DNA of 51,028 nucleotides. Source: Deltaproteobacteria bacterium HGW-Deltaproteobacteria-1. Its GTDB lineage: Bacteria; Desulfobacterota; Syntrophia; Syntrophales; Smithellaceae. The stretch lies in contig PHBN01000038.1 in assembly GCA_002840635.1 (NCBI GenBank), positions 1-51,028 on the forward strand, given 5' to 3'. A program made the translations under genes and the position numbers. Below are positions 8,696 to 48,011 of this stretch, piece after piece (position 1 is the first letter of the stretch; each line of letters starts with the position of its first letter). Below the pieces are notes generated by a model. That model made no database searches. It was not told where the DNA came from and worked only from the letters and a program-made list of their open reading frames with translations.

Positions 8696-8727
8696 ACTGA
8701 TTCATTGGTTAACCCTCTTTTTCTTTT
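8690..8727 (+). terminator. rho-independent terminator after tRNA-Leu
   Basis: GGGTTAAC (8690..8697) pairs with GTTAACCC (8708..8715) across a 10-nt loop, followed by TCTTTTTCTTTT. Confidence 0.6.
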
Positions 8728-11723: not shown

Positions 11724-11797
11724 TCTTGAGAGGGTAGTGGACAAAATCCGTGCTGGTTCAAGTCCAGTCTTCGGCACCATAATAATAAAGGGGGTTA
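11724..11797. repeat. right copy of the 74-bp direct repeat (pseudo-tRNA 3' half 11724..11779 plus 18 nt)
   Basis: The sequence runs from TCTTGAGAGGGTAGTGGACAAAATCCGTGCTGG through TTCAAGTCCAGTCTTCGGCACCA to TAATAATAAAGGGGGTTA, and no tRNA 5' half precedes it. Confidence 0.9.
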
Positions 11798-11858
11798 GCC
11801 AGGTTAAAGGTTAATCCCTTTTTTATTTTGAGTTCATTTGATTACAAATTAAAAAAAA

Positions 11859-16293: not shown

Positions 16294-16295
16294 TC

Positions 16296-16383
16296 AGGCT
16301 GTTCAATAAAAGGAAGCCGGTTTAAATCCGGCGCTGCCCCGCAACTGTAAGCGGAAAGCGCAGAAGGGCAACTCCCGGGAAGA
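16296..16383 (+). promoter_or_regulatory. cobalamin riboswitch, 5'/core portion only
   Basis: AAAAGGAAGCCGGTTTAAATCCGGCGCTGCCCCGCAACTGTAAGCGG fits the conserved core AGGGAA..GGTG.AA..CC...GC.G.CCCGC.ACTGTAA. No B12 box or expression platform is recognisable before coding sequence begins. Confidence 0.6.
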
Positions 16384-16384
16384 T

Positions 16385-20600: not shown

Positions 20601-21320
20601 ATGAGGAATCTGCGTATTGCTTTTGGATTATTGACGACGCTGCCATTCGGAATACGGGGAAGCTGGCAGCCCGGCGACAGCGGCCGGGCCGGAATCTGGT
20701 ATCCGATGGTCGGTATTGTGATCGGCGGATTGACCTGGCTTGTATGGTACGTGCTGAAACAGTATTTTCCACCTCTGGCCGTTGGCGTCATGACACTCGT
20801 GGTGTGGGTCTGTCTGACCGGCGGACTGCATCTCGACGGATTGGCGGACTGCTGCGATGGTTTACTGTCTTCAAATGTTCCCGAACGGCGTTTGGAAATC
20901 ATGAAAGACCCGCATCTGGGAACGTTTGGCGGCATCGGCCTGATTCTGGTTTTGTTTTCCAAAATCGTGGCGTTGAGTATCCTCACATCTTCAAACGGTC
21001 TTGGCATCATTCTCGCTGCAACGGTCAGCCGCTGGATGATCCTGCCCGCTTCGCTAATGCCGCTTGCCAATCCCGACGGAATGGCCGCTGATTTCGCTTC
21101 AGGATTCAAGCGGAGTGTCGTTTTTATTTCCGCGGTTTTTCCGCTTGGCCTTGCTTGTTTGCTCGGCATTCCGGGGTTTTTTGCATTGGTTACCGCCGGG
21201 GTTGCAGCGGCCGCCGTGCTGATGCTTTCTTATCGCCGTATAAACGGTGTGACCGGTGATGTTTTCGGTATGCTGGTCGAGGTGGTAGAAGTAGCTGTTT
21301 TGCTGAGTTTAACTGTATGA
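20601..21320 (+). CDS. cobS: adenosylcobinamide-GDP ribazoletransferase (cobalamin synthase)
   Basis: Polytopic 239-aa protein with the GGLHLDGLADCCDG motif. Confidence 0.88.
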   Translation: MRNLRIAFGLLTTLPFGIRGSWQPGDSGRAGIWYPMVGIVIGGLTWLVWYVLKQYFPPLAVGVMTLVVWVCLTGGLHLDGLADCCDGLLSSNVPERRLEIMKDPHLGTFGGIGLILVLFSKIVALSILTSSNGLGIILAATVSRWMILPASLMPLANPDGMAADFASGFKRSVVFISAVFPLGLACLLGIPGFFALVTAGVAAAAVLMLSYRRINGVTGDVFGMLVEVVEVAVLLSLTV

Positions 21321-22117
21321 TAGAAACGAATGGTTTTTCTTTCAGGCTGGGCACGACCTCCTACATCATTCCCGCGGATATTTTGTCCAATGTTCGGTAT
21401 CTGGCGGGGAAAGTACGGGATGTGGAGCTGGTACTGTTCGATGTGGACGATGGCATGAACAATCTGCCGTCGAAAGAGGAAATTGATGAGCTTCGCAGGA
21501 TCGGTTCTGACCAGGACCTGACATACACTGTCCACCTGCCTCTGGATTTGCGTCTGGCAGATGACGGCACTGCGTGCCATGCCTCTATCGACAAGGCCCG
21601 CAGGGTCATCGAAAGCAGTGGCAGGCTTGATCCGTGGGCTTATGTATTGCACCTAAACGGGAAATCAGTCCGTAACGGCGCATCGTCAGGAGTGATGCGG
21701 TACTGGCTGGAACAGGCCGTCCGATCGCTGGAAATTGTCGGAGAATGCGCGGGAGGAGTCGAAAAACTGGCTGTCGAAAACCTGGAAGGTTATCCGCTTG
21801 ATTTCTACGAACCGGTGCTGAAACGGATTGCCGTGAGCCGTACAGTGGACATTGGACATCTTTGGCTCGACGGTCACGATGCGGGTGCTTACTTGCACGG
21901 GGCTCTGCCGCGAACGCGCGTCGTTCACATCCACGGAATCGACGGACGCGATCACAGGTCGCTGGCGAATGTATCGCAGGAAAAACTGCGTGCCGTCCTC
22001 AATGAACTTGTTCGCACCGGCTACCGGGGTGTCCTAACTGTTGAAGTATTTTCAGAGGTGGACTTTCTGACCTCCTCTGCGGCTATTCAAGCAGCGATGA
22101 AAGGAGAACAGGTATGA
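21317..22117 (+). CDS. xylose-isomerase-like/AP-endonuclease-2 TIM-barrel protein, candidate cobamide-remodelling phosphodiesterase (CbiR-like)
   Basis: 266 aa with metal-ligand-like HLPLD, HLNG, VENLE, DIGH and HIHG motifs. ATGA overlaps couple it to cobS upstream and cobU downstream. Confidence 0.55.
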   Translation: MIETNGFSFRLGTTSYIIPADILSNVRYLAGKVRDVELVLFDVDDGMNNLPSKEEIDELRRIGSDQDLTYTVHLPLDLRLADDGTACHASIDKARRVIESSGRLDPWAYVLHLNGKSVRNGASSGVMRYWLEQAVRSLEIVGECAGGVEKLAVENLEGYPLDFYEPVLKRIAVSRTVDIGHLWLDGHDAGAYLHGALPRTRVVHIHGIDGRDHRSLANVSQEKLRAVLNELVRTGYRGVLTVEVFSEVDFLTSSAAIQAAMKGEQV

Positions 22118-22665
22118 TTCCTGAAATCCCCGTAAACGGCCTGACGCTTTTTTTGGGTGGCGCGCGCAGCGGCAAAAGTTCTTTCGCAGAAAAAATCGCC
22201 CGGGATTCAGGAAAATCCGTTCTTTACATCGCCACGGCCGCAGCCGGCGATGATGAAATGGCCGAGCGCATCCGCAACCATCAGGCATCGCGTCCGGCCC
22301 AATGGCAGACGCTTGAATGTCCGCTCAATATCGGCCGTCGTCTTGACGCACCGCGGGCCGAAGTGGTGATCGTTGACTGCATTACTCTGCTGGTCAGCAA
22401 TATTCTCCTTTCCTTTCGGGAAGAAACGCCTGCCGAAACCATCATGCACAAAGTCAGTATTGAAATGGAAGAAATTATTGACGCGCAGTCCAGGATCAGC
22501 GGGCAGTGGCTGGTCGTGTCCAATGAAGTGGGCCTGGGTCTTGTGCCGCCCTATCCGCAGGGACGCATTTACCGCGACGTGCTGGGCCGGGCCAATCAAA
22601 TTCTGGCTAAGGCCGCGAGTCGTGTCATCCTGATGGTTGCCGGAATTCCGATGGTGGTTAAGTAG
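22114..22665 (+). CDS. cobU: bifunctional adenosylcobinamide kinase / cobinamide-phosphate guanylyltransferase
   Basis: 183 aa. P-loop GGARSGKSSFAE, then VVSNEVGLGLVP. Confidence 0.88.
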   Translation: MIPEIPVNGLTLFLGGARSGKSSFAEKIARDSGKSVLYIATAAAGDDEMAERIRNHQASRPAQWQTLECPLNIGRRLDAPRAEVVIVDCITLLVSNILLSFREETPAETIMHKVSIEMEEIIDAQSRISGQWLVVSNEVGLGLVPPYPQGRIYRDVLGRANQILAKAASRVILMVAGIPMVVK

Positions 22666-23691
<1,026 letters not shown>

Positions 23692-23704
23692 ATGCCGATG
23701 CGGG

Positions 23705-24463
23705 GTGGGAATGATTATGAAGCGCAAAATCATTAAAATTGACGAAGAAAAATGCACCGGCTGTGGATTGTGCGTGCCGGGCTGTGCCGAAGAAGCCATT
23801 AAAATCATCGACGGCAAGGCCAAGCTGGTCAGCGATGTTTTCTGCGATGGATTGGGGGCCTGTATCGGTGAGTGTCCCGAAGGCGCGCTTACTCTTGAAG
23901 AGCGTGACGCGGATCCCTTTGACGTAAACAAAGTTCAGGAGGCGATTGCCCCGAAAAAAGGCCAGGCAGTGCCGCAAAATCTTCATGTCATGGGCGGAGC
24001 CGGCTCTTGTCCCGGTTCAGCTCACGCCGTCTTTGAACGAAAGGATCAGGTTCCCGGCAAGGCGCAAACGTCCGGGCAGCCGTCCGAGCTGACTCACTGG
24101 CCGGTTCAACTGCACCTGATAAATCCCGCCGCCGACTTTTTCCGCGGCAAAGACGTCGTGCTGGCCGCGGATTGCGTCGCGTTTGCCCTGGGGGATTTTC
24201 ATGAGCGATTTTTAAAAGGCAAAAGCCTGGCCATTGCGTGTCCCAAGCTCGATGAGGGATTGGATGAATATGTTGAAAAAATCCGGCGGATGGTGGATGA
24301 GGCCCGGATCAACACGCTCACCGTGGTGACGATGCAGGTGCCCTGCTGCCGGGGATTAATGCAGATTGCCCAGGCCGCCCTGCAGAAGTCAACAAGAAAA
24401 GTGCCGCTGAAATCTGTGGTCATCAGCATCCAGGGTGACGTGCTTTCTGAGGAATGGGTGTAG
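23705..24463 (+). CDS. 4Fe-4S dicluster-domain protein with a Cys-rich C-terminal domain
   Basis: CTGCGLCVPGCAEEA and CDGLGACIGECPEGA motifs, with a later VPCCRG. 252 aa. Confidence 0.7.
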   Translation: MGMIMKRKIIKIDEEKCTGCGLCVPGCAEEAIKIIDGKAKLVSDVFCDGLGACIGECPEGALTLEERDADPFDVNKVQEAIAPKKGQAVPQNLHVMGGAGSCPGSAHAVFERKDQVPGKAQTSGQPSELTHWPVQLHLINPAADFFRGKDVVLAADCVAFALGDFHERFLKGKSLAIACPKLDEGLDEYVEKIRRMVDEARINTLTVVTMQVPCCRGLMQIAQAALQKSTRKVPLKSVVISIQGDVLSEEWV

Positions 24464-24517
24464 GATAGGGCAAGCCCTGTTAACAAATGGATCATGCATC
24501 ATCAGGGAGAATGAACG

Positions 24518-25192
24518 ATGCCTTTCTTTACAGCCGATGACGGTGTCCGTCTGCATTATCAGACAAGCGGCGCCGGGAAACCGGTTTTGTTCATTCACGG
24601 ACTGACGGCAAGTTCCCTTTTCTTCCGAAAACAAATTCCCGAACTGGCAGGACGCTTTCAAGTCATTGCACCCGATTTGCGCGGCCATGGACTGTCTGAG
24701 GCAGCAACGGATCACCTGACCATCCGGAGGCTGGCTGAAGATTTAAGACAGTTGATCGACCACCTCAATTTATCTGAAATATCATTGATCGGCTGGTCGA
24801 TGGGCGCGCACGTGATTTTCGAATACATCAAGAACTATTCCTGCGCCGGAATAGAAAAAATTCTGATTATCGAGAAAAAGAACAACGCATCGGTCATCGC
24901 CGCTTTCTGGATCGCCATGGCGGTGCAGGATTACCGGCCGGTTTTGAAAAGCATTTCGGTTCCCTGCCTCCTGGTTTACGGAACCGAAAGCAATTATTAT
25001 CCCGCAGCAAATTATGACTACATGCAAAAGCAGATACCCGATGCCAGGGTTGCCGCTTTTGAGGGCTGCGGGCATGCCCTGCATATTCAGGACCCGGAAT
25101 TATTCAACCGCATGGCAATGGATTTTTTACTGACGGGTTTTTCTGCTTGCGAGGGCCAGCAGGACGCCTCCGAGCCCGAAGGTGATGGCTAA
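24518..25192 (+). CDS. alpha/beta hydrolase (unusually short lid region)
   Basis: FIHGLTAS, nucleophile elbow GWSMGA, C-terminal GCGHALHIQDPE. Only about 18 residues occupy the position where homologues usually carry a 50-70 residue cap. Confidence 0.7.
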   Translation: MPFFTADDGVRLHYQTSGAGKPVLFIHGLTASSLFFRKQIPELAGRFQVIAPDLRGHGLSEAATDHLTIRRLAEDLRQLIDHLNLSEISLIGWSMGAHVIFEYIKNYSCAGIEKILIIEKKNNASVIAAFWIAMAVQDYRPVLKSISVPCLLVYGTESNYYPAANYDYMQKQIPDARVAAFEGCGHALHIQDPELFNRMAMDFLLTGFSACEGQQDASEPEGDG

Positions 25193-28385: not shown

Positions 28386-28597
28386 GACGTTTCCTCCTTT
28401 GATGTGAAAATGTTCCATTCTTTTTGTTATTTAGACAAAACCAAAGGGGGAAAAGTTCCAGCCTCTTTTTTTATAACTGCCTATTTTACTTACAAACTGA
28501 AATACTCAATATTATTAGACATTGTACGAATAATAGGAAAATCGGCTCGTCCGGACACTGTGAACAGGGCACTACTTTTTATATAATTATTATCCTC

Positions 28598-28626
28598 TTG
28601 ACAAACAAGACACCCTCTCCTATATT
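28598..28626 (+). promoter_or_regulatory. near-consensus sigma70 promoter upstream of the GC-rich cassette
   Basis: TTGACA (28598..28603), a 17-nt spacer, then TATATT (28621..28626), 45 nt before the ATG at 28671. It is embedded in AT-rich DNA. Confidence 0.5.
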
Positions 28627-28670
28627 CATGCCCGCTAAAATGAAACTGTTATCATTTTAAAAAACGAAAT

Positions 28671-30965
28671 ATGACATCCAGCGCCGTCCCTCCCGCGAAC
28701 ACTGAAAAATCACTGCCCAATTCCTGGCGTGGCGATGTGCAAAACTGCCTCGTCGCCGGTGAAACCGTTGAGTCCTGGGTGGAGACCGATCTCGACGCCC
28801 GCCTCCACTTTGCCGACAACCTGGTGGTTATCACCAACCGACGCCTTTTGGCGCACATTCCGGGCAACGGCGAATGGAAAAGCTGGGATTTCCGTGCGGG
28901 ACTCTCCCTCCGCCATCGCAGCCATGTCGGCGTAGGCACGCTGGAGCTGGTGGACGACGGCGGTCGTCTGGCCATCTGGCACTATACCATGAACCGCAAC
29001 ATGGCCGCCCTCAGCGTCAGGAGGGCTTTTGAGGAGCAACTCGATAGCACCATCACCGGCCAGCCGGTGGCTAAACATGAGGAAATCCTATGTCCCAGGT
29101 GCAAATTGCCCCTTGAGCCTGGTATCGAGGAGTGTCCGATCTGCACCCGGGAAACGCAGACACCGCCTTCCACATGGACGCTCTTCCGCCTGTGGCGCTT
29201 TGCCAGGCCTTACAAGGGTCGTCTGCTGGCTGGCTTCCTGCTGACACTGGCCTCCACCGGCGCCACCCTGGTACCTCCCTACCTGACCATGCCGCTAATG
29301 GACAACGTGCTGATCCCGTTCCAGAACGGCAAGCCCATCGACGTTCGCCTGGTAGAGCTATACCTCAGCGGCTTGCTGGGCGCCGCCCTGCTTGCCTGGG
29401 GCTTGGGCTGGGCCCGCACCTATATTCTGGCCCTGGTGTCCGAGCGGATCGGTCGTGACCTGCGTACCGCTACCTTTGAGCACTTGTTACAGCTGTCGCT
29501 GGAGTACTTCGGCGGCAAGCGCACCGGTGACCTGATGGCCCGCATCGGTTCGGAGACGGACCGCATCAACCTCTTCCTCTCGCTGCACCTTCTGGATTTC
29601 GCCACAGACGTTCTGATGATCCTCCTCACTGCGATAATCCTTTTCTCCATCCATCCATGGCTGGCGCTGGTCACCCTGCTCCCTCTGCCCATCATCGCCT
29701 GGATGATCCATAACGTGCGCGACCGCCTGCGCACCGGTTTCGAGAAGGTGGACCGCATTTGGGCCGAGGTTGCCAACGTGCTGTCTGACGTCATCCCCGG
29801 TATCCGTGTGGTCAAGGCCTTCGCCCAGGAAAAGCGCGAGGCCGCCCGTTTCCGTGAAGCCAACTTACATAACCTGGTATTAAACGACCGCATTAACAAG
29901 ATATGGGCCCTCTTCAGTCCCACAGTGACTCTGTTCACCGAAGTCGGTCTGCTGGTTGTGTGGGGTTTCGGCATCTGGCAAATCAGCAAAGGCGAGATCA
30001 CCGTCGGCGTGCTCACGGCCTTCCTTGCTTACATCGGTCGATTCTACACTCGCCTCGATTCCATGAGCCGCATTGTTTCAGTGACCCAGAAGGCCGCCGC
30101 AGGCACCAAGCGCATCTTCGATATCCTCGATCACGTTTCCAGCGTACCGGAGCCTGTCAACCCGGTGCATCTCATGGACGTTCGCGGCGAAATTGAGTTA
30201 CGCAACGTCGGCTTCCGCTATGGCACCCGCGCTGTAACGCATGATGTCAGCCTGACGATCAAGTCCGGCGAAATGATCGGACTCGTCGGTCATTCCGGCT
30301 CCGGCAAGACCACTCTTGTGAATCTCATCTGCCGCTTCTACGACGTAACCGAGGGCTCCGTGCTTATCGACGGTGTGGACGTGCGTTCTGTGCCGGTGGC
30401 CGAGTTCCGCAGAAACATCGGCCTGGTTCTGCAGGAGCCCTTTCTCTTCTTCGGCACTATCGCCGAAAACATCGCCTATGGCAAACCGGACGCCACCCGC
30501 GAAGAAATCATCGCCGCCGCCCGCGCAGCCCATGCCCACGAGTTTATCCTGGGCCTGCCCAATGGCTATGACTCTCTGCTGGGTGAGCGCGGCCAGGGCC
30601 TCTCTGGCGGCGAGCGCCAGCGTATATCCATCGCCCGGGCCCTCCTCATCAATCCGAAGATCCTCATCCTTGACGAGGCCACCTCCTCAGTCGACACCGA
30701 GACCGAGAAGGAAATCCAGAAGGCCCTGGACAACCTCGTACGCGGCCGCACTACTATTGCTATCGCCCATCGCCTGTCCACCCTGCGTAAGGCCGACCGA
30801 CTCGTGGCCATGGACCGCGGCCAGGTGGTGGAAATGGGCAGCCACGATGAACTGATGGCTAAGGAAGGCCACTATTACCGTCTCTACCAGGCCCAGGCCC
30901 GCAATGTCGATACCGAACCGGAAATCCCGCGTGCCGTTGACCGGTTCAGGGAGCACGCAGCATGA
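28671..30965 (+). CDS. ABC exporter (fused TMD-NBD, type I) with a ~165-aa N-terminal PH-like domain plus CxxC-x10-CxxC zinc ribbon
   Basis: 764 aa. N-terminal GETVESWVETD...LVVITNRRLL (bacterial PH-like), CPRCKLPLEPGIEECPIC at 29091..29144, six TM helices, Walker A GHSGSGKTT, signature LSGGERQR, Walker B ILILDEATS, H-loop IAHRLST. Confidence 0.9.
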   Translation: MTSSAVPPANTEKSLPNSWRGDVQNCLVAGETVESWVETDLDARLHFADNLVVITNRRLLAHIPGNGEWKSWDFRAGLSLRHRSHVGVGTLELVDDGGRLAIWHYTMNRNMAALSVRRAFEEQLDSTITGQPVAKHEEILCPRCKLPLEPGIEECPICTRETQTPPSTWTLFRLWRFARPYKGRLLAGFLLTLASTGATLVPPYLTMPLMDNVLIPFQNGKPIDVRLVELYLSGLLGAALLAWGLGWARTYILALVSERIGRDLRTATFEHLLQLSLEYFGGKRTGDLMARIGSETDRINLFLSLHLLDFATDVLMILLTAIILFSIHPWLALVTLLPLPIIAWMIHNVRDRLRTGFEKVDRIWAEVANVLSDVIPGIRVVKAFAQEKREAARFREANLHNLVLNDRINKIWALFSPTVTLFTEVGLLVVWGFGIWQISKGEITVGVLTAFLAYIGRFYTRLDSMSRIVSVTQKAAAGTKRIFDILDHVSSVPEPVNPVHLMDVRGEIELRNVGFRYGTRAVTHDVSLTIKSGEMIGLVGHSGSGKTTLVNLICRFYDVTEGSVLIDGVDVRSVPVAEFRRNIGLVLQEPFLFFGTIAENIAYGKPDATREEIIAAARAAHAHEFILGLPNGYDSLLGERGQGLSGGERQRISIARALLINPKILILDEATSSVDTETEKEIQKALDNLVRGRTTIAIAHRLSTLRKADRLVAMDRGQVVEMGSHDELMAKEGHYYRLYQAQARNVDTEPEIPRAVDRFREHAA

Positions 30966-31429
30966 GTACCCTCAACCTTCAATTGGTCCGCAATCCCTTT
31001 GGCAGACTGATGCTCACCACCGCCCAGGGCACCGAGGAAGAAGTTGTTCCAGTGCGATCCTTTCCCATTGCCGCCCCGGAAAATAGCATTTCCCTGGTGA
31101 GCATGGATGGCCACGAACTGGCCTGGATCGAACATCTTGCCGACCTGCCCGACGCCCAGCGCCGATTGGTGGAAGAAGAACTGGCCAGCCGCGAGTTTGT
31201 GCCTGAGATCCGTGCCATTAAAACCATTTCCAGTTTCGCGACGCCCAGCACATGGCAGGTGGACACCGACCGCGGTCCCTTCGCCCTGGTGCTTGAGAGC
31301 GAGGATGACATCCGCCGTATTTCCCGGACCATGCTCATGATTTCCGACAGCAACGGCATCCAGTTCCTGGTGCGTGATCTGACCAAACTGGACCGGAGCA
31401 GCCGCAAGTTACTGGATGGTTTCCTATGA
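30962..31429 (+). CDS. DUF1854-family protein
   Basis: 155 aa. The start overlaps the ABC stop (ATGA). The sequence pattern (PFGRLMLT...VRSFPI...ISLV...EL..I..L..LP...R.L...EL..REF.PEI..I) fits my memory of DUF1854 proteins that accompany such transporters next to cphA. Confidence 0.7.
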   Translation: MSTLNLQLVRNPFGRLMLTTAQGTEEEVVPVRSFPIAAPENSISLVSMDGHELAWIEHLADLPDAQRRLVEEELASREFVPEIRAIKTISSFATPSTWQVDTDRGPFALVLESEDDIRRISRTMLMISDSNGIQFLVRDLTKLDRSSRKLLDGFL

Positions 31430-31541
31430 TTCACTTTGATAAAATAAGTAAAGTGATCGATAATTTTGACATCCAATCCGATGTGAAAACGATACCAGGC
31501 GATCCCCCGCATCCTGCGCGGGTACCCGGAAAGACACTATT

Positions 31542-33739
31542 ATGAGCAAAAAAGATATCGAATTCCTGAAGATCGTTCCCCTGCGCGGCCCTAACATGTG
31601 GACCTATCGTCCCGTGCTGGAGGCCTGGGTCAACATCCATGGCCTGGAGGATACCAACTCCAGCGCTTTACCCGGATTCTACGAGCGTCTGTCAGCCTGG
31701 CTCCCCTCCCTGGTTGAGCATCGCTGCAGCTATGGGGAGCGGGGCGGCTTCCTGCGCCGGGTGAAAGAGGGCACCTGGCCCGGTCATATCCTGGAGCACG
31801 TCACCCTGGAACTGCAAAACCTGGCCGGCCTCCCCGGCGGCTTCGGCAAGGCCCGCGAGACCAACCGCCGTGGAATCTACAAAGTGGTTATACGAGCCTG
31901 GCAGGAGGATGTCACCCGCGCTGCCCTTTATGCCGCCCGCGATCTGATCCTGGCGGCCATGGAGGACCGCTCCTTCGATGTGGCCGGCACCATCGAGCGC
32001 CTCACCGACATGGCGGACTCTCTCTGTCTCGGTCCCAGCACGGCTAGCATTGTTGATGCCGCAACCGAACGAGGCATCCCCACCATCCGTCTTCTGCCCG
32101 GCGGCAACCTGGTGCAGATCGGTTACAGTGCCGCCATGCGCAGGATATGGACAGCGGAAACCGACCGGACCAGTGCAATCGCCGAAACCATTTCCCGCGA
32201 CAAGGACCTGACCAAGACATTGCTTTCCTCCTGTGGCGTCCCCGTACCCGAAGGCCGCGAGGTGGACAGCGCGGGAGATGCCTGGGAAGCCGCCCAGAAC
32301 ATCGGTCTGCCGGTCTGTGTCAAACCCATCGACGGCAATCACGGTCGCGGTGTCTTTATCGACGTAAAGACCAGAGAAGAAGTGGAAATGGCCTATTCCT
32401 TTGCCGTCAATGAAGGCAGTGGCGTTCTCGTCGAGCGATCCATTCCGGGCACCGAGCACCGTCTGCTCATTGTCGGCGGCAAGCTGGCCGCCGCTACCCG
32501 CGGCGACGTAGTGCATGTAGAAGGCGACGGCAAATCCACCATGAGGGAACTGATCGAGATTCAGATCAATTCCGACCCGCGCCGCGGACCGACCGAACTG
32601 CATCCGCTCTCCGGCATTATTATAGATTCCATTGTCACCATGGAGCTGGCTCGCCAAGGCTTTAACGCGGAATCCGTTCCGGCAGCGGGCAAAAAAATTC
32701 TGATCCAGCGTACGGACAGCCACGCCTACGACGTTACCGACGAGGTACACCCTGACAATGCTGTCCTGGCCGCTTTGGCCGCACGAATCATCGGCCTCGA
32801 TATCGCCGGCATCGATCTGGTAGCGGAAAATATATCGAAACCCCTGTTCGAGCAACGCGGAGCGATCGTCGAGGTCAACGCCGGCCCCAGCCTGCTCATG
32901 CACCTTAAGCCAGCCGTCGGCCAGCCACGCCCGGTAGGCAAGGCCATTGTTGATTACCTCTTCCCCAAAGGCGAGACGGGGCGCATTCCCATCGTCGGCA
33001 TTTCGGGTTCCAGGGGCAAGACGTCAGTTGCCCGTTGCCTCGACCACCTGGTTCGTCTGTCCGGCAAGCATGTCGGTCTTGCCAGCAGCGACGGCCTCTT
33101 CCTGAATGGCCGCCACGTGCAGAAGACTGACGCCTCCAACTGGACTTCCGCCCGCCGGTTGCTGCTGAACCGTTCCGTTGAAACCGCCATTCTGGAGAAT
33201 GGCATCCGTGCTATTCTCGGCGAGGGTCTGGCTTACGATCGTTGTCAGGTGGGCGTGTTGACCAATCTGATGATCTCTACAAGGTGTTGCGCACCCAGGT
33301 GGATGTCGTTCTCAAGAGCGGCACTTGCATCCTCAATGCAGCTGACCCGCAATTGGTGGAAATGGCAAAACTCTCCGACGGTGAGGTGATCTTTTTTGCC
33401 CGGGAGGCTGACAGTCCTGTTGTAATCGAGCATTGCGCCGGAGGTGGGCGCGCCGTTATCGCGAAGAAAAACGAGATCATGCTGATTGCCGGCAATATTG
33501 AAACCCGCCTGGCCAGTCTGACCGATATTCCCAGCGTGCAGTTGGGTAACGAATCCTTTCGCATTGACAACGTCCTGGCCGCTTTGGCTGCCGGCTGGGC
33601 TTTGAATGTACCGCTGGAATTGCTGTCTGCCGGCATCAATGCTTTCGAACAGGAAGAACTGCACCCCAAAGGTCGTAACAACAACGGCCGCAAGCGCCAG
33701 AAGAAGAACAGACAGGGCAACCGTGCCCATTTGAAATAG
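31542..33739 (+). pseudogene. cphA: cyanophycin synthetase paralogue 1 (N domain, ATP-grasp, truncated Mur-ligase-like domain); frame change at ~33268-33272
   Basis: LRGPNMWTYRPVLEAWV, LGPSTASIVDAA, ATP-grasp core and P-loop GISGSRGKTS. Reading switches from the 31542..33389 frame to the 33242..33739 frame between VGVLTNL and DDLYKVLRTQ. It ends in a basic tail, GRNNNGRKRQKKNRQGNRAHLK. Confidence 0.85.
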
Positions 33740-33751
33740 AAAGAGGAATTC

Positions 33752-36153
33752 ATGGAAGTTTCACGCATCCGGGCCCTGCGGGGTCCCAACCTGTGGAGTC
33801 GGAATACGGCCATCGAGGCCATCGTTACGTGCAACGAGAACGAGCGCTCCCTCGACGCCCTCCCCGGTTTCGAAGAACGCCTGCGGGAACGATTTCCGGA
33901 AATTGGTTTTCTGAATGCCACCGGTCATTACAAAGATGTGCCCCTGGCCCGGGTCCTGGAATTTTCCGTTCTGGGCCTGCAGGCCCAGGCCGGTTGTCCT
34001 GTGACCTTCAGCCGCACATCGGAGACCATCAATAGTGGCACCTACCAGGTGGTGGTCGAATACAGCGAGGAAGATGTCGGACGGCTTGCCTTCGATCTGG
34101 CCGAACAACTCATCAAGGCCGCACTTGAAAATAAGCCCTTCGACCGTGCCAACGCTCTTAGCCGCCTCAAGAAATTGGATGAGAATGTCCGCCTCGGCCC
34201 CTCCACTGCCTCCATCGTCGAGGCCGCTGTTTCCCGTGGCATCCCTTACCGCCGACTGACCCAGGGCAGCCTCGTACAATTCGGCTGGGGCAGCAAGCAG
34301 CGTCGCATTCAGGCCGCCGAGACCGATCTCTCCAATGCCATTGCCGAATCCATTGCCCAGGATAAAGAACTAACCAAGCAATTACTGCATGCCACGGGTG
34401 TGCCGGTGCCTTTGGGCCGCCCGGTCACCAGCGCTGAGGATGCGTGGACCGCCGCCCAGGAAATCGGCGGCCCGGTAGTGGTGAAACCCCGTTATGGCAA
34501 TCAGGGTAAAGGCATTTCGGTCAACATCCAGACATGCGAGGAGATCACGGCGGCCTATAACACGGCCATCGAATTTTGCGATGAAGTCCTGGTGGAGCGT
34601 TACCTGCCGGGTCACGACTACCGCTTCCTGGTCATCGGCAACAAGCTGGTTGCCGCTGCCCGCCGCGACCCGCCACAGGTAATCGGTGATGGTATACACA
34701 CCGTGCGCGAATTGGTCGACCAGGTGAACGCCGATCCGCGTCGCGGCGAAGGCCATGCCACGTCCCTTACCAAGATCCGCTTTGATGACATCGCCCTGTC
34801 TCGCCTGGTCATGCAGGGTTTCGACGCCAACTCCGTGCCGCCCAGAGGCACCCGCATCATCCTGCGCAACAATGCCAACCTCTCCACCGGTGGCACCGCC
34901 ACCGACATCACCGACGACGTCCATCCGGAACTGGCTGCCTGCGCAGAGGCCGCCGCCCAGACCGTTGGCCTCGACATCTGCGGTATCGATGTAGTCTGCG
35001 AGACGGTATTGAAACCCCTGGAAGAACAGGGAGGCGGCATCGTCGAGGTGAACGCGGCCCCCGGCCTGCGCATGCACCTTTCGCCCTCCTATGGCAAGGG
35101 TCGCCCTGTGGGGGAAGCCATCGTTTCCATGATGTTCAAGCCGGGTGAGGATGCCCGCATTCCTGTCGTGGCTGTTGCCGGGACGAACGGAAAGACCACT
35201 ACAACGCGCCTCATCAGTAATATCCTGGCCAGGAACGGCAGGCGTGTGGGCCTGACCAGTACCGACGGCGTCTACGTTGAAGGCAGGCGTATTGACAGAG
35301 GTGACTGCAGCGGCCCTAAAAGCGCTCGCAACGTCTTACTGCATCCCTGTGTAGACATTGCCGTGTTTGAGACCGCACGTGGCGGCGTGCTGCGTGAGGG
35401 TCTCCGGCGATGGCTGCCACCTGCCCGGGTAGTGTCATCTACTTCGCCCGCGACAGCTTCCATCCGGTCATAGCTACTCACCGCGCTCAGGGGAAACGTG
35501 TGGTCTATGCCGAAGGCGACTACATCGTCCGTGCCGAAGGCAGGGACGAGCATCGTATTCCCCTTGCTGCCATCCCCATCACCGGCGGCGGCACCTTCGG
35601 CTTCCAGATCGAGAATGCCATGGCGGCCACGGCAGCCTGCTGGGCCCTGGGACTGTCCTGGGACACGATCTCCGCCGGTCTTGCTGGCTTCGTGAACGAC
35701 GCCCGGACGGCGCCTGGACGGTTCAACGTCTTCAACTACCACGGCGCCACTCTCATCGCCGACTACGGGCACAATCCGGACGCCATCCGGGCACTGGTCG
35801 ACGCCATAGAGACCATGCCGGCCAAAAAGCGGTTGGTGGTCATCAGTGGCGCCGGTGATCGCCGCAATGAAGATATCCGCCGTCAGACGGAAATTCTCGG
35901 CACCGCCTTCGACGAGGTCATCCTTTACCAGGATGCCTGCCAGCGCGGCCGTCAGGATGGTGAAGTCCTGACCCTCCTGCGTGAAGGCCTCTGCGGGGCC
36001 GAACGCACCTGCCACATCGAGGAGATCTACGGCGAGTTTCTGGCCATTGATAATGCCTTCAACCGCCTCAAAAGAGGCGATCTCTGCCTGATCCTCATCG
36101 ACCAGGTGGAAAAGGCCCTTGATCACATCGCCAGACGCATCGCCGAGGACTGA
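33752..36153 (+). pseudogene. cphA: cyanophycin synthetase paralogue 2 (full architecture) with an internal gap and frame change at ~35404-35409
   Basis: LRGPNLWSRNTAIEAIV, LGPSTASIVEAA, P-loop GTNGKTTT. After ARGGVLREGL the frame changes and resumes at AATCPGSVIYFARD. About 57 codons that are present in paralogue 1 and in reference CphA are absent. The C-terminal PGRFNVF...DYGHNPDA...GAGDRR region is intact. Confidence 0.85.
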
Positions 36154-36247
36154 TCAACAAAGCCCACTAAAGATTACAACAAAGATCGCAGAACGTAACC
36201 TTTAAGAAGGAACCGGTGGCGCTAAAGAGAAGAGCGTATGGTGGAAT

Positions 36248-36691
36248 ATGAATAATTTAAAGAATTATCGTCATTATCTTTTAATTCTGCCGCTGTTTTT
36301 TGTATCCTGTTACCCCGTGGCATATAAAAATCTTGAGTGCACACATTATTATGGCGGTTCCACTCAATCCATGCTTGTAACGCCGGTGACAAATCCTTAC
36401 ATGGTAGAAGCAACACAAATTACAATTAATAATTCTGATGCTGAAGGAGAGATGGTCAAAACAAATTTTCTTTTTAAGGTTGTCTATGTTTTGCCTCCAG
36501 CCGATGATGCTGCGATTAATATTTATGTTTATTATCTCTCGGATGCAGGGCAAGTGCCTGTTCATCAGGTGAAGTATTTGCCTCCATTTCCAGTTCGGGA
36601 TGACGACCAGCCATTTGGATTTACGGGCTTACAAAATGTTTATGAACCCACTCTGGGACGAGTCTTTCAATATTGCTGCCGCTGGAAATAA
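36248..36691 (+). CDS. hypothetical lipoprotein
   Basis: 147 aa. Signal peptide with lipobox LFFVSC. AT-rich, and no recognisable domain. Confidence 0.5.
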   Translation: MNNLKNYRHYLLILPLFFVSCYPVAYKNLECTHYYGGSTQSMLVTPVTNPYMVEATQITINNSDAEGEMVKTNFLFKVVYVLPPADDAAINIYVYYLSDAGQVPVHQVKYLPPFPVRDDDQPFGFTGLQNVYEPTLGRVFQYCCRWK

Positions 36692-36709
36692 ATATTTAAA
36701 AAGGGAAAT

Positions 36710-37708
36710 ATGCAAATATTTCGAATAATATGTTTTTTGATATTTCTTTTAATTTTCCCCAGGGCAGGTTTTGCTCACGACCAGATTGTGCGGGTCAACT
36801 TCGTGGGAGACGTAATGATAGCAATGCTGCCGGGTGACCTTATTATAAAAGGCCGGGACCCTTTTACTGGATTTGCTGATATTTTTAAATCCGGTGATAT
36901 TAATATAGGAAACCTGGAAACATCGGTTGCGTCAGGTGGTAAGCCATTGAGCAAGCCGTATGTTTTTCGGGCAACTCCTGCAGCAGTACCCGTCTTAAAA
37001 AAGTATTTTCATGCCATGTCACTGGCCAATAATCATACGGGAGATTATGGTCAAAGCGCCTTGCAGGAAACATTTCAAAACCTGAAAAAGGGCGGACTTA
37101 ACTACTTTGGAGCCGGCTATAATTTATCTGAAGCGCATACCCCGCTGATCTTTGAGCGAAAGGGATTACGAATTGCTCTTTTAGGATACAACGAATTTTT
37201 TCCAAGACAATTTGAAGCGGGCGCAAGCAGGCCGGGAGTTGCCTGGAGTTCTGAAGATGAACAGGTGATTGCCGATATTAAAAGAACGCTGAAGCAATAT
37301 GGCGCAGATATTGTGATCACTTACATGCATTGGGGTTGGGAAGACGAGCCGCTTCCCAGTGAAAGACAACGAACCCTGGCTCGCAAAATGATTGATGCCG
37401 GTGCCACCGTTGTGATAGGCAGCCATCCGCATATCCTTCAAACCGTTGAATCCTACAAAGGGGGCTTGATTGCATATAGTCTGGGTAATTTCGTATTCGA
37501 TGAATATGATGATGACGCTGGTTGTACCGGCTGGCTTCTTCGATTAAATTTTGATCGCAAAGGTCTTTTGAGTTGGGACACCATCGTTTCATATATTGAT
37601 CCAAAAACCGGTTTCCCAAATCCCAGACTGAATGTGAAAAGTCCCTGCGGAAACAGGCAACACCCTGAGATTGGCTTCTGCGTTGCAGGAAAGCCTTTGA
37701 AAGAGTGA
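36710..37708 (+). CDS. CapA-family (PGA_cap) metallophosphatase-like protein
   Basis: Signal peptide, then VNFVGDVM, GNLET, ANNH, HWGWE and GSHPH motifs, characteristic of the CapA/YwtB family. Confidence 0.8.
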   Translation: MQIFRIICFLIFLLIFPRAGFAHDQIVRVNFVGDVMIAMLPGDLIIKGRDPFTGFADIFKSGDINIGNLETSVASGGKPLSKPYVFRATPAAVPVLKKYFHAMSLANNHTGDYGQSALQETFQNLKKGGLNYFGAGYNLSEAHTPLIFERKGLRIALLGYNEFFPRQFEAGASRPGVAWSSEDEQVIADIKRTLKQYGADIVITYMHWGWEDEPLPSERQRTLARKMIDAGATVVIGSHPHILQTVESYKGGLIAYSLGNFVFDEYDDDAGCTGWLLRLNFDRKGLLSWDTIVSYIDPKTGFPNPRLNVKSPCGNRQHPEIGFCVAGKPLKE

Positions 37709-41431: not shown

Positions 41432-42511
41432 TCAATAACGCACGTAACTGTAATAATCATAGACGCTGTCAAGGCTTTTTTCTATTTCCGATGATTTTGC
41501 AATGCAAAAAACGATATGTTTTTCTTTGGGTGTGGCTTTTTCAAGATACTCAAAGACTGATAAATGTGGGTCTGCGATCGCTACGGTTAATTTCCTGGCG
41601 CTGTTATTTATAACGACAATACGATTCTCCAGGGCGTATTCTTCTCCTATGGCTTTCTGCATGGCGCGGGATACGGTGTAACCTTTTAAAGAAACAACGG
41701 GCATGCTGAAGTGAGCAGACAGAGCATGAACATAATCTTTTTCGCTTATCATCTTGCTTCTGGCGAGCAGGTGACCCAGATGCTTGTGTATGCCGAAGTA
41801 TTTTTGTTGCTTCTGCTGATTGAGTATGTCATTTAACTGCTCCCGGGTTATGATATTCAGTTCAATGAGAATTTCTCCCAGTTTTTTTCTCTTGTTGCTG
41901 TAGTAGAGACCTTTCATAATTTTGGACTGGGGAAGGCCCATTTCACAGAGTATTTGTCCGAGATATTTTTCGGGTTCCCGTTTTTTCAGATCCATGGCCG
42001 TATTTAAATCAGATTCCGATATGATTCCCTTCGACACGAGAATCTGACCGATTTTATTGGACGAAGACTCCGCCTCATGAATTTTGGATTCCAGCTTTTT
42101 TGTTACATTATTGAGACTGCTTAATGCTTTGCTGATATTCATATAGGAATTGGCCTGGATAAGACCCATTTCACGAAGTATTTGTGCCGGTGTTTTGTCA
42201 GGTTCTCGTTTTTGCCTTTCCATGGCTTCGCTTAAATCGTCTATCGTGATATTTCTTTTCGCAACGACAAGCTTGCTGTCTTTCTCAGACGAGAACTCAG
42301 CCTGTTTCATTCTGGATTCGAGCTTTTTTGCCGCATTGTTCAGGGTGTTTAATGCATTATTGATTTGGGCGCTGGATTGTTGAGAGACTATTTCATGAAG
42401 AATACGTTCCGGTGGTTTGTCCGGTTCACGTTTCTTTCTTTGCATGGCTTCGCTTAAATCTTTTATTGAGATGTGTTTTTTCAGACTTGGAATATGAAAC
42501 ATAGGCTTCAC
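41432..42511 (-). CDS. T2SSE_N/MshEN-like domain protein with three tandem 74-76-aa repeats
   Basis: 359 aa. Repeats start at residues 14, 88 and 164 (I[ST]I.DLSEAM..[QK]KREPDK...IL.E). DNA period is 222/228 nt (CATGGCTTCGCTTAAATC at 42221 and 42443). The C-terminal part resembles GspE/PilB N-terminal domains. Confidence 0.65.
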   Translation of the reverse strand: MKPMFHIPSLKKHISIKDLSEAMQRKKREPDKPPERILHEIVSQQSSAQINNALNTLNNAAKKLESRMKQAEFSSEKDSKLVVAKRNITIDDLSEAMERQKREPDKTPAQILREMGLIQANSYMNISKALSSLNNVTKKLESKIHEAESSSNKIGQILVSKGIISESDLNTAMDLKKREPEKYLGQILCEMGLPQSKIMKGLYYSNKRKKLGEILIELNIITREQLNDILNQQKQQKYFGIHKHLGHLLARSKMISEKDYVHALSAHFSMPVVSLKGYTVSRAMQKAIGEEYALENRIVVINNSARKLTVAIADPHLSVFEYLEKATPKEKHIVFCIAKSSEIEKSLDSVYDYYSYVRY

Positions 42512-47485: not shown

Positions 47486-48011
47486 CTGTTTCTTCCTCCG
47501 CTGTCTTTCCCAGTTGATTTAAGATCAAGCCCGGAGGGAAACCGCGTCCCATCAGGCTTTGAAATATTCTCTGTTTTTCTTTGACGTTATGCACCGCCGA
47601 TTTCTTTCCGGTCGCCCGTTTTTTAATCAAAATGGCAATGGCGTTTTCTTCCGTCATTTCCTGCCGCGCCGAAGCCACGGCATCGTTGATCAAACGAGCC
47701 GGTACGCCTTTTTCCTGCAGGCTGGCGATGATTTTTCGATTGCCCCACAGTTTGTTTGCCGCAAGATTTCGCGCCCACTGCATGGCAAAAGACGCGTCAT
47801 TGAGATACTTCAAATCGAGGAGTTTTTCCAGCGCTTCTTTTACGACGACTGCGGGAAATCCCTTCTCCCGCAGCTTTTTTTCCAGTTCTTTTTCCGAATG
47901 CGGCCGCATCGATAAAAGACGATACGCTTTTTGTTTGGCTGCCGCGAGGTCTAAAGATTTCACACTATGCTTCCTGCTCTTTATCCACGATTCCCAGTTT
48001 TTCCCGGACAT
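47478..48011 (-). CDS. recX: recombination regulator RecX
   Basis: 177 aa of helical repeats typical of RecX, between recA and alaS. An alternative GTG start at 47963 would abut the recA stop. Confidence 0.8.

Follow-up and report, generated by a model that had tools for sequence, protein, structure and literature searches.

Organisation of the cassette and its promoter

The window analysed here is a stretch of 51,028 nucleotides. It matches HGW-Deltaproteobacteria-1 at 100% and a Smithellaceae MAG at 97%, which assigns the host to Smithellaceae (Syntrophales), within the population of the MAG 'Deltaproteobacteria bacterium HGW-Deltaproteobacteria-1'. Four co-directional genes were found on the forward strand at positions 28671-36153, encoding an ABC transporter, a DUF1854 protein, and a short and a long cyanophycin synthetase paralogue, respectively. 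The features of this cassette are as follows.

28590..28645, + strand: predicted promoter block with TTGACA (28598-28603), a 17-nt spacer and TATATT (28621-28626); 11/12 consensus positions
28671..30965, + strand: cyanophycin-associated ABC half-transporter, 764 aa, intact; NF052233, 1406.6 bits (cutoff 880)
28719..29144, + strand: accessory region at the N-terminus of the ABC protein, made up of a PH-like domain (residues ~17-129) and, after it, a CxxC...CxxC zinc ribbon; AF2 model and Foldseek hits
30962..31429, + strand: DUF1854 protein, 155 aa, intact, with an ATGA overlap with the ABC stop; NF052234, 222.6 bits (cutoff 150)
31436..31464, + strand: second promoter-like site, TTGATA-17-GATAAT, in the 112-nt spacer between the DUF1854 gene and cphA; a 10/12 consensus match only
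31542..33739, + strand: short cyanophycin synthetase paralogue (cphA'-type), 746 aa when intact, frame-broken here; NF010623
31725..31799, + strand: Cx19HxxEH zinc-peptidase motif in the N domain of the short paralogue, C62...H82-I-L-E85-H86, by the definition in PMC9262961
33740..33751, + strand: 12-nt spacer with the ribosome-binding site AAAGAGGA, read directly from the sequence
33752..36153, + strand: long cyanophycin synthetase paralogue (cphA-type), 856 aa when intact, frame-broken here; NF010623

The initial annotation had described four linked co-directional genes with an ATGA overlap between the first two, a 12-nt gap before the second cphA, long antisense open reading frames and a near-consensus TTGACA-17-TATATT promoter at the left border. 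All of these were recovered: the stop/start overlap lies at 30962-30965, the gap at 33740-33751 reads aaagaggaattc, antisense open reading frames within the cassette region reach 403 aa, and the promoter at 28598-28626 matches the consensus at 11 of 12 positions. The profile searches it had proposed gave matches to NF052233, NF052234 and PF08909 (1.7e-50 for the DUF1854 protein), and the other two genes matched cyanophycin synthetase. No flanking IS elements were present in the gene tables of the locus, and no cyanophycinase (Peptidase_S51) was found in the tables covering positions 539-41157 of the window, approximately 40 kb of annotated context. A PGA_cap (CapA-like) gene of host-like GC adjoins the cassette in Smithellaceae and is absent from the betaproteobacterial cassette loci.

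A 50-nt promoter block recurred at approximately 92% identity in the Smithellaceae loci L009 and L010, despite a coding dS of 0.56-0.80 between the lineages compared, and was absent from the Rhodocyclaceae loci L011 and L012. These results show that the predicted promoter block, from which the cassette would be driven, is conserved only in the recipient lineage. Among the 80 loci examined, which were the closest of at least 575 DUF1854 loci and are biased toward near relatives, DUF1854 directly followed this ABC subtype in 80/80, and the short and long cphA genes were adjacent wherever the contig reached. In this sample, the association of this ABC subtype and DUF1854 with cphA that had been proposed earlier is therefore borne out.

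The ABC transporter and DUF1854

The ABC protein is identical to PKN88297.1 of HGW-Deltaproteobacteria-1. It carries ABC_membrane (residues 185-458) and ABC_tran (residues 524-672) domains, and its translation contains Walker A (GHSGSGKTT), signature (LSGGERQR), Walker B (ILILDEATS) and H-loop (AHRL) motifs. Residues ~165-745 matched the structures of ABCB, MsbA, Sav1866 and TM287/288, indicating an exporter fold. The N-terminal region had been labelled a sensor domain, and this label found no support: a Pfam search with the domain gave no match, and the AF2 model (pLDDT 85.6, seven strands and a long C-terminal helix) matched only PH, PTB or FERM-F3 domains in Foldseek (probability ~1.0, TMt ≤ 0.66, E ~1e-3). 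The zinc-ribbon cysteines C141, C144, C155 and C158 are nearly invariant, and all homologues of the domain that were found are N-termini of the same ABC subtype. The region thus models as a PH-like fold plus a Cys4 zinc ribbon, and it is placed in the cytoplasm because exporter-fold ABC half-transporters usually have their N-terminus inside.

The AF2 model of the DUF1854 protein (pLDDT 83) consists of two beta-rich modules, each followed by a helix, and no solved structural homologue of the model was found. Natural fusions of ABC_membrane, ABC_tran and DUF1854 exist (P0308 and P0347). These fusions and the PH-like and zinc-ribbon nature of the former 'sensor' domain are new here.

Complementary motifs in the two synthetase paralogues

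The short paralogue is represented in the window by open reading frames 31542-33389 and 33242-33739, matching positions 1-574 and 584-727 of the NF010623 profile, and the long paralogue by 33752-35473 and 35410-36153, matching positions 1-561 and 620-866, respectively. The intact short protein scored 1021.9 with NF010623 (cutoff 877) and only 738.8 with TIGR02068 (cutoff 850). The intact long protein scored 992.6 with TIGR02068 (cutoff 850) and aligned with SuCphA1 (7LG5) at 640 bits over residues 2-850.

Residues with known roles in CphA (PMC9262961, PMC9427784) were scored in 52 short and 64 long copies. The Cx19HxxEH motif, defined in PMC9262961, was present in 52/52 short and 0/64 long copies, and the N-L-S-x-G-G loop in 0/52 and 64/64, respectively. 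Arg458 was replaced by Leu in all 52 short copies, only three of which had the DH motif and three of which exceeded 800 aa. Among the long copies, His267 was replaced by Gln in 64/64, and the DH motif and the P-loop were each present in 63/64. The short copy thus keeps the N-domain peptidase site and is without the Asp-binding loop, Arg458 and the M-domain motifs, and the long copy shows the reverse; both depart from canonical CphA1 at residues shown to matter. This complementary loss of motifs between the paralogues, seen across the 52 short and 64 long copies, is new here.

Origin of the cassette and integrity of the cphA genes

The GC content of the cassette was 0.598, compared to 0.494 on its left and 0.481 on its right (approximately 0.49 for the rest of the window). 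For the cassette genes, GC3 was 0.70-0.75 compared to a mean of 0.545 (sd 0.076) in 37 other open reading frames (z = 2.0-2.7, Mann-Whitney p = 8e-4). When 2.5-kb windows were compared with the remaining sequence by tetranucleotide frequency, the Pearson correlation was 0.32-0.51 inside the cassette and 0.69-0.90 outside. The compositionally foreign character noted in the initial annotation therefore held in all three checks. Its low value of 27% GC at 36241-36300 was reproduced (0.267), but the right border is not AT-rich as had been claimed: the intergenic spacer has a GC of 0.436, and the AT-rich sequence belongs to the next gene.

Each of the four gene trees grouped the Smithellaceae copies in a single clade (bootstrap 80-100), with Syntrophales monophyly at 95 for the ABC protein, 98 for DUF1854, 100 for the short and 80 for the long paralogue. 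Their sisters were Rhodocyclaceae/Azonexaceae MAGs, inside a betaproteobacterial family. The nearest non-Syntrophales loci, L011 and L012, have the same co-directional layout and showed 85% (ABC), 77-78% (short) and 80-84% (long) identity. The GC excess of the cassette over its flanks was approximately 0.10-0.15 in Smithellaceae loci and approximately 0-0.05 in betaproteobacterial loci. Loci L008 and L009 carry the cassette at the same chromosomal site. The cassette occurs in at least four Smithellaceae lineages, where dN/dS values of 0.04-0.20 show purifying selection; this indicates a single old transfer into Smithellaceae. Horizontal acquisition, as the initial annotation had proposed, is well supported by composition and four-gene phylogeny, and these point to betaproteobacteria, with a Rhodocyclales-like origin.

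Neither cphA gene is one open frame in the window, which the initial annotation had missed. Relative to otherwise identical contigs, the short gene lacks 43 nt at 33269/33270, a loss that takes out NPEEKYVDFAIEDV, and the long gene lacks 169 nt at approximately 35405-35408, which costs it the TNIGTGDHLG region of the M domain; each deletion breaks the frame. Intact genes of 746 and 856 aa were found in five near-identical (~100%) metagenome contigs from independent assemblies (L001-L005). The intact proteins each occurred in three contigs, with many 90%-cluster relatives. Over 40 kb, the window differed from L001 and L088 by only three substitutions, yet it carried 11 deletions of 39-252 nt, and alaS and recA were likewise broken. 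Because five near-identical contigs are without the deletions, and because at least 11 similar lesions occur in the record and alaS and recA are also broken, both frame-breaking deletions are most likely assembly-like errors of the sequence record and not biology.

Two other accounts of these data were weighed. If the cassette were native, its high GC would come from protein composition or expression level; betaproteobacterial cassettes too are often 0.01-0.05 richer in GC than their flanks, and one unrelated open reading frame of the window reaches a GC3 of 0.73. This is very improbable. Vertical descent would not leave proteins 77-85% identical to those of Rhodocyclales, which belong to another phylum, and the trees place the genes within Rhodocyclales. 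In addition, the tetranucleotide signature lies far outside the range of the window, and an excess of 0.10-0.15 is limited to Syntrophales hosts. The second account, a decaying pseudogene cluster in which the deletions are real and polymer synthesis has been lost, would agree with both broken frames and with the NCBI protein records, from which the broken cphA reading frames and the intact proteins are absent while the ABC and DUF1854 proteins of the MAG are present, a pattern that fits pseudogene calls in the deposited MAG. It is nevertheless decidedly unlikely given the intact genes in five independent assemblies, the ratio of deletions to substitutions, the like lesions in recA and in the essential alaS, and dN/dS values in sister lineages showing that the genes are maintained.

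Function: export, storage or import

The four genes have been studied in betaproteobacteria. Price et al. (bioRxiv 10.1101/072470) reported that DUF1854, the ABC transporter, cphA and cphA' are cofit in Acidovorax 3H11 and Cupriavidus basilensis 4G11, that knockouts show motility and stress phenotypes and not nitrogen phenotypes, and that the homologous Cupriavidus necator pair made no cyanophycin in earlier work; their proposal was a transporter that effluxes an amino-acid polymer, with DUF1854 as one of its subunits. The earlier statement that no experimental role was known for the ABC protein or DUF1854 is outdated by these cofitness data.

Judged from motif patterns alone, the long and short paralogues may form one machine with divided labour. 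The long subunit, with its Asp-binding loop, Arg458 and Mur-ligase-like M domain all preserved, would probably extend the Asp backbone and add the side-chain amino acid. In the short subunit the phosphate-binding residues of the ATP-grasp domain and the zinc endopeptidase site of the N domain are preserved, whereas the elements for aspartate binding, the catalytic motifs of the M domain and its lid are gone; this subunit would probably supply primer generation or chain cutting, perhaps non-canonical ligation. The product would be handed to a homodimeric exporter-fold ABC half-transporter, where the cytoplasmic PH-like/zinc-ribbon domain and the NBD-associated DUF1854 may recruit polymer or synthetase, and the polymer would leave the cytoplasm instead of being stored in granules. 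As counterpoints, the change of His267 to Gln in the long subunit might itself impair catalysis, and no periplasmic or outer-membrane partner genes adjoin the cassette.

Some exporter-fold ABC proteins, such as IrtAB and YbtPQ, are importers. An importer of this kind, taking up polymer fragments or precursors for the synthetases, would fit an N-terminal cytoplasmic accessory domain loosely reminiscent of IrtAB, and nothing in the sequence fixes the direction of transport; it is highly unlikely here, as no substrate-binding protein or scavenging genes (cyanophycinase, isoaspartyl dipeptidase) lie nearby, the best NCBIfam relatives of the ABC protein are exporters (MsbA, HlyB (TIGR01846) and a glucan exporter), and the published hypothesis from fitness data is efflux (bioRxiv 10.1101/072470). 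Classical intracellular storage of nitrogen and carbon is a minority possibility of somewhat greater weight. Cyanophycin granules would then be formed, with the ABC protein and DUF1854 as accessories in amino acid or dipeptide movement or in regulation and no export of polymer. In its favour, profile searches identify both paralogues as cyanophycin synthetases, with the long one above the TIGR02068 equivalog cutoff and alignable to SuCphA1 from end to end, and genome papers on Gallionellaceae take the pair as storage enzymes (PMC5178258). On the other side stand the strict linkage to an exporter-fold ABC protein, the cofitness of the four genes together with knockout phenotypes in motility and stress but not in nitrogen (bioRxiv 10.1101/072470), and the report that no cyanophycinase had been detected in betaproteobacterial genomes (PMC5178258). 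The 'storage module' of the initial annotation is not favoured because of the exporter fold, the lack of a cyanophycinase in 539-41157 and the deviation of both paralogues from CphA1 at functionally tested residues. Export of the polymer is favoured over storage, and the cassette probably makes and exports an amino-acid polymer. As a whole, we find it reasonably probable that this is an acquired betaproteobacterial cphA/cphA'-ABC-DUF1854 operon with divided-labour synthetases and an exported polymer, in which the deletions are record errors.

Comparison with known systems

In PgsBCA/CapBCA, a Mur-ligase-family enzyme makes non-ribosomal poly-gamma-glutamate that ends up outside the cell. The likeness to the cassette is conceptual, together with the CapA-like gene next to it in Smithellaceae; the components are unrelated except for the Mur-ligase fold. 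HlyB, with its C39-like domain, and the PCAT transporters are ABC exporters with an N-terminal cytoplasmic accessory domain, and they share with the cassette protein a half-transporter (TMD + NBD) with an extra N-terminal domain as a possible cargo dock. In contrast, a PH-like domain plus a zinc ribbon stands here in place of C39, DUF1854 is an additional partner, and no membrane-fusion or outer-membrane genes are adjacent.

The N-G-M architecture is common to the paralogues and CphA1 (SuCphA1 7LG5, TeCphA1 7WAC), and the long paralogue is alike over 850 residues. Unlike CphA1, the long paralogue is without Cx19HxxEH and has Gln for His267, and the short paralogue is without the G-omega Asp-binding loop, Arg458, the ETARGG and DH motifs and the M lid. 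The cyanobacterial CphA2 (8FXH) polymerises beta-Asp-Arg dipeptides and has a reduced M domain, and the M domain of the short paralogue is likewise truncated and motif-poor. With 505 bits to CphA1 and 193 bits to CphA2, the short paralogue is nevertheless far nearer to CphA1, and it keeps the N-domain HxxEH that CphA2 is without (PMC9262961).

The closest system is the betaproteobacterial operon (bioRxiv 10.1101/072470; NF052233/NF052234; 'Group 1' cphA cluster, PMC10687191), which shares all four genes, their co-directional order (that of Rhodocyclaceae/Azonexaceae), the motif pattern of both paralogues and the lack of a nearby cyanophycinase. The cassette differs in its anaerobic Smithellaceae host, where it is foreign in composition, in its recipient-specific conserved promoter, in having no flanking IS elements, and in the interruption of both cphA genes in this record. 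The NCBIfam names NF052233 and NF052234 already call the transporter and DUF1854 cyanophycin-associated. The cassette does not represent a novel type of system, being the betaproteobacterial cphA/cphA'-ABC-DUF1854 operon.

Gene content of the cassette

The cassette was found to consist of four co-directional genes on the + strand at 28671-36153, and the profile-HMM searches gave the following assignments.

28671-30965, + strand: gene 1, ABC transporter, 764 aa; NF052233 "cyanophycin metabolism-associated ABC transporter", 1406.6 bits (cutoff 880)
30962-31429, + strand: gene 2, DUF1854 protein, 155 aa; NF052234 "cyanophycin metabolism-associated DUF1854 family protein" and PF08909
31542-33389 and, in another frame, 33242-33739, + strand: short cphA paralogue (cphA' type), split; NF010623, profile positions 1-574 and 584-727
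33752-35473 and 35410-36153, + strand: long cphA paralogue, split; NF010623, profile positions 1-561 and 620-866

The NF052233 match spanned residues 4-752 of the 764 in the ABC protein, and the DUF1854 protein scored 170.6 bits against PF08909 (cutoff 26.8) and 222.6 bits against NF052234 (cutoff 150). The initial annotation had placed two cphA paralogues after the DUF1854 gene. A cyanophycin synthetase was indeed matched twice there, but both genes are frame-broken in the window, which that reading had not seen. The other details that it described were present in the sequence, namely the ATGA overlap between the ABC and DUF1854 genes, the 12-nt spacer aaagaggaattc ahead of the second cphA and a TTGACA-17-TATATT promoter, located at 28598-28626 and agreeing with consensus at 11 of 12 positions. 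A riboswitch or leader RNA 5' of the ABC gene was rejected, since the only Rfam matches in the window were a tRNA-Leu and a cobalamin riboswitch, both elsewhere.

Integrity of the synthetase genes and of the sequence record

Exact-protein look-up of the DUF1854 product matched seven metagenome contigs (JGI, ENA and Logan). Five of these were long enough to share the gene order of the window, and in them the two synthetases were intact, with 746 and 856 aa, respectively. When the window was compared with these near-identical contigs by BLASTN over approximately 40 kb, it differed by 3 substitutions and 11 deletions of 39-252 nt. The deletion junctions (within window 539-41157) were at 4910/4911, 6190/6191, 7167-7171, 10086, 15471, 16355/6, 24875, 27855-60, 33269/70, 35405-8 and 40148-53. 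In the short gene, a 43-nt deletion at 33269/33270 takes out NPEEKYVDFAIEDV, and in the long gene a 169-nt deletion at 35405-35408 takes out the M-domain TNIGTGDHLG region. Also struck were kdp genes, the leader of a TonB-dependent receptor, the gene of an alpha/beta hydrolase and that of a hypothetical protein of 281 aa, among others. Further along, at 44959-48860, alaS was found in fragments (TIGR00344 profile positions 2-553 and 606-847) and recA was matched at profile positions 1-211 of 321 before the frame was lost. No record of the alaS fragment of the window was found by exact look-up, as would be expected if the fragment itself were an artefact.

To our knowledge, a living population cannot carry an essential tRNA synthetase in broken form, and natural sequence drift does not proceed almost wholly by deletions. 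Because alaS is broken and the divergence consists almost entirely of deletions, it is highly probable that the synthetase breaks are errors of the sequence record, and the biology is therefore to be read from the intact versions on the reference contig, L001. The whole record looks defective, beyond the cassette. Real pseudogenisation of the cassette in this strain is quite unlikely on the same evidence. The ABC and DUF1854 proteins were identical to NCBI records of HGW-Deltaproteobacteria-1, and the synthetases, intact or broken, were not in the NCBI protein records, as would be expected had they been called as pseudogenes when the MAG was deposited; with so many deletion artefacts, such calls made from the record alone would be wrong. 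For the cphA genes, programmed frameshifting was rejected: the change of frame is due to the 43 nt and 169 nt that identical contigs have and the window lacks, and not to a slippery site. An assembly break at the cphA deletions caused by strain mixing was also rejected, as strain SNPs were clustered only at the hydrolase deletion.

Two side observations were made in the same comparison. At locus positions 1-3754, contigs L002 and L004 differed from L001 and L003, being 92.7% identical to them left of the hydrolase gene and approximately 100% identical right of it; this sharp recombination boundary between two co-existing strains coincides with the 251-nt deletion of the window (window 21301-24875 plus the adjacent deleted stretch). 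The cobalamin riboswitch (16279-16439; 35.4 bits, gathering score 31.5), which lies 5' of the TonB-dependent receptor and beside the salvage genes CobT, CobS and CobU, is severed by a 247-nt deletion at 16355/6.

Composition, distribution and origin of the cassette

The view that the cassette is compositionally foreign and horizontally acquired was upheld. Its GC content was 0.598, compared to 0.494 on the left and 0.481 on the right. GC3 of the cassette genes was 0.70-0.75, compared to a mean of 0.545 (sd 0.076) for the 37 other ORFs (z = 2.0-2.7; Mann-Whitney p = 8e-4), and, in 2.5-kb windows, tetranucleotide usage correlated with that of the remaining sequence at 0.32-0.51 in the cassette and at 0.69-0.90 outside it. 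Across loci, the GC excess of the cassette over its flanks was 0.10-0.15 in Syntrophales and 0-0.05 in betaproteobacteria.

The DUF1854 protein shared 100% identity with its counterpart in HGW-Deltaproteobacteria-1 and 97% with the one in a Smithellaceae MAG, and the next named relatives were from Rhodocyclaceae, at approximately 71% identity. When the DUF1854 profile was run against one genome per GTDB species, at least 575 loci were obtained, of which the best 80 were analysed; this set consists of near relatives and is biased toward them. The genome of the window is absent from the GTDB representatives, and the best match among these was a Smithella MAG (88% identical). The proposed association of DUF1854 with this ABC subtype was borne out, the DUF1854 gene being directly 3' of the same ABC subtype in all 80 of these near-relative loci. 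The short and long cphA genes were adjacent wherever the contig extended that far. The layout was co-directional in Syntrophales, Rhodocyclaceae and Azonexaceae, and divergent in Burkholderiales, Nitrosomonadales-type taxa and others.

In neighbour-joining trees of all four genes (100 bootstraps), the four Syntrophales copies formed one clade (bootstrap 95 for ABC, 80 for long, 100 for short and 98 for DUF1854) with Rhodocyclaceae/Azonexaceae MAGs as sisters, a placement at odds with the lineage of the host. Two other Smithellaceae lineages carry the cassette at this same chromosomal site, and between them dN/dS was 0.04-0.20 for all four genes. A 50-nt block in the promoter region was approximately 92% identical among the Syntrophales copies despite a synonymous divergence of 0.56-0.80, and was absent from the Rhodocyclaceae loci. 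The reading that fits these findings best is a single old transfer out of a donor of Rhodocyclales type, after which the genes were retained and a promoter of recipient type evolved. The identity of the operon and its horizontal transfer are close to certain, and a native origin, which would have to accommodate both the composition and the trees, is scarcely credible. A composite transposon has been suggested for the cphA cluster (PMC10687191). Here, a composite transposon or a genomic island with att sites was rejected, as IS elements, integrases and tRNAs are absent from the borders and repeats do not rise above chance level.

The cassette was also seen on L013, an 8.8-kb contig from an Actinomycetota-labelled MAG, where cassette GC was 0.67 and the rest 0.65 and the ABC protein was 83% identical to that of the window. 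This is probably a binning error and possibly another transfer.

Other features beside the cassette and in the window

Genes for a 147-aa hypothetical protein and a PGA_cap (CapA/MslH-like) protein, with host-like low GC, adjoin the cassette in three Smithellaceae lineages, at 36248-37708 in the window, 6651-8107 in L008 and 6067-7532 in L010, where they are on the opposite side of the cassette. They were absent from the betaproteobacterial loci, and a functional tie to the polymer is conceivable. Elsewhere in the window, the 3' half of a tRNA-Leu(GAG) and approximately 45 nt that follow it recur at a distance of 3.1 kb with approximately 90% identity (8592-8727 and 11724-11829). Between the repeats lies a segment of lower GC with genes for an AAA_14/DUF4143 ATPase and a Tricorn/PD40-like beta-propeller protein. 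It could be a small integrated islet, but no integrase was seen. On the - strand, a 359-aa ORF at 41432-42511 contains three or four repeats of approximately 60 aa (DLSEAM..KREPDK.P..IL.EMGL) and lies in the stretch of lowest GC in the window (41-44 kb, 0.38-0.42).

Complementary motif loss in the two synthetases

Residues defined experimentally (PMC9262961, PMC9427784) were scored in every paralogue that the 80 loci yielded. The roles of the Asn394/Ser396 loop, Arg458 and His267 are described in PMC9427784.

Catalytic and binding motifs in the short (n = 52, median 737 aa) and long (n = 64, median 856 aa) paralogues
Cx19HxxEH zinc-peptidase motif, N domain: short 52/52; long 0/64
P-loopG residue 267: short His, 44/44 where the motif was located; long Gln, 64/64
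Asn394/Ser396 "large loop", substrate-aspartate binding: short 0/52; long 64/64
Arg458: short Leu instead, 52/52; long kept, 57/57 where located
ETARGG motif: short 0/52; long 64/64
TNx..DH motif, M domain: short 3/52; long 63/64
M-domain P-loop: short 25/52; long 63/64
C-terminal M lid (length >800 aa): short 3/52; long 64/64

A complete Mur-ligase-like M domain (P-loop, ETARGG, TNxxxDHLG and lid) was thus intact in 63-64 of the 64 long paralogues and lacking in the short ones; in the long gene of the window itself, the DHLG region is deleted. The intact long paralogue of L001 scored 992.6 bits against the TIGR02068 equivalog and passed its cutoff of 850, while the two fragments in the window scored 683.9 and 195.4 bits separately. 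The intact short paralogue fell below that cutoff (738.8 bits) and passed the NF010623 subfamily model (1021.9 bits, cutoff 877). The reciprocal pattern is clean and conserved across the family, which argues, judged from sequence, that the short and long proteins may act together with divided labour. In L010 (Syntrophaceae), a third cphA-like gene was observed directly 3' of the long one (15359-17392), its product being 37% identical to the long protein over residues 1-652.

The ABC transporter and the DUF1854 protein

Residues ~165-745 of the ABC protein form a standard exporter-fold half-transporter with intact ATPase motifs. The N-terminal 165 residues had no Pfam match, with only sub-threshold zinc-ribbon-like matches at E up to 10, and this region was found only on this ABC subtype. 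Its AlphaFold model (pLDDT 85.6) has seven strands and a long helix cap, and all of its Foldseek matches were to PH, PTB or FERM-F3 domains (probability approximately 1.0, TMt up to 0.66). The PH-like domain is followed by a ribbon of four near-invariant cysteines and then by a conserved PPSTWTLFRLWRFARPY segment leading into the membrane. The region had initially been called a sensor domain. As transporters with this fold generally have a cytoplasmic N-terminus, it would not be a sensor of the outside. Peptides are the typical ligands of PTB/F3-type PH folds, so a role of the modelled domain in docking the polymer or the synthetase would fit.

The DUF1854 model (pLDDT 83) contains two small beta-rich modules with a helix after each. 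In Foldseek searches of the PDB, it had no match at E <1e-3 and TM-scores did not exceed 0.29, with a faint tandem PH/polo-box likeness. By hhalign, the N-terminal domain of the ABC protein and DUF1854 showed no homology (probability 0.5%). The family comprises approximately 2,100 clusters at 50% identity, mostly stand-alone proteins of 150-180 aa, and some members follow the ABC NBD as a C-terminal fusion (the natural fusion proteins P0308 and P0347). These fusions would place DUF1854 on the cytoplasmic face, beside the ATPase, and together with the ATGA translational overlap they would be compatible with DUF1854 being a physical partner of the ABC protein.

Proposed function

In the model that we favour, the long subunit would polymerise the backbone and add the side chains, the short subunit would use its N-domain peptidase site to cut or prime chains and may also perform a non-canonical ATP-grasp ligation, and the ABC dimer with DUF1854 would export the product. 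Taken as one package of identity, transfer, heteromer and export, this model is somewhat more probable than its rivals together. Two of its parts are finely balanced: a short-long heteromer has about the same chance of being right as of being wrong, and so has outward transport of a cyanophycin-like polymer by the ABC protein, for which the grounds are indirect, namely the exporter fold and published cofitness. A stricter form can be proposed only tentatively. In it, the heteromeric polymerase would be obligate, the three CphA1 activities would be split so that the short subunit carries the endopeptidase and primer site and the long one performs Asp and side-chain ligation, and the enzyme would be coupled through the PH-like/zinc-ribbon region and DUF1854 to a dedicated ABC exporter.

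Cyanophycin is regarded as an intracellular nitrogen store for which no export route is known (PMC9974463). The cassette might serve classical intracellular storage; given the linked exporter-fold protein and the cofitness of its gene with the synthetases, this is unlikely. That the ABC/DUF1854 pair is an importer with an exporter fold is very unlikely. The favoured export model predicts that polymer would build up inside cells once the ABC or DUF1854 gene is removed, and the family-wide complementary motif loss predicts which subunit does which step and which point mutants abolish which. The module moved as one unit across phyla and was kept under selection in a strict anaerobe, which argues for a self-contained function. 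Pairs of cphA and cphA' are widespread in betaproteobacteria, without cyanophycinase and without an established product. If true, the heteromer-exporter reading would make this the first pathway by which a cyanophycin-like polyamide is secreted, and one that gene transfer has carried from aerobic betaproteobacteria to anaerobic syntrophs.

Comparison with known systems

Genes for DUF1854, the ABC transporter, cphA and cphA' were reported to be cofit in Acidovorax 3H11 and Cupriavidus basilensis 4G11, the phenotypes concerning motility and stress; the same study noted ABC-DUF1854 fusions and stated that the homologous enzyme pair of C. necator did not make cyanophycin (Price et al., bioRxiv 10.1101/072470). 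The same cluster, with two cphA genes and an ABC transporter and without cphB, was found in an activated-sludge survey (PMC10687191). Beyond Price et al., the literature searched yielded nothing on a CphA heteromer, on secreted cyanophycin or on a third class of synthetase. The four-gene module is therefore not new; it is a genuine member of a known operon family, recorded here in a new host lineage. The motif complementarity and the PH-like accessory domain are new observations, which sharpen the question posed by this family and do not constitute a new kind of system.
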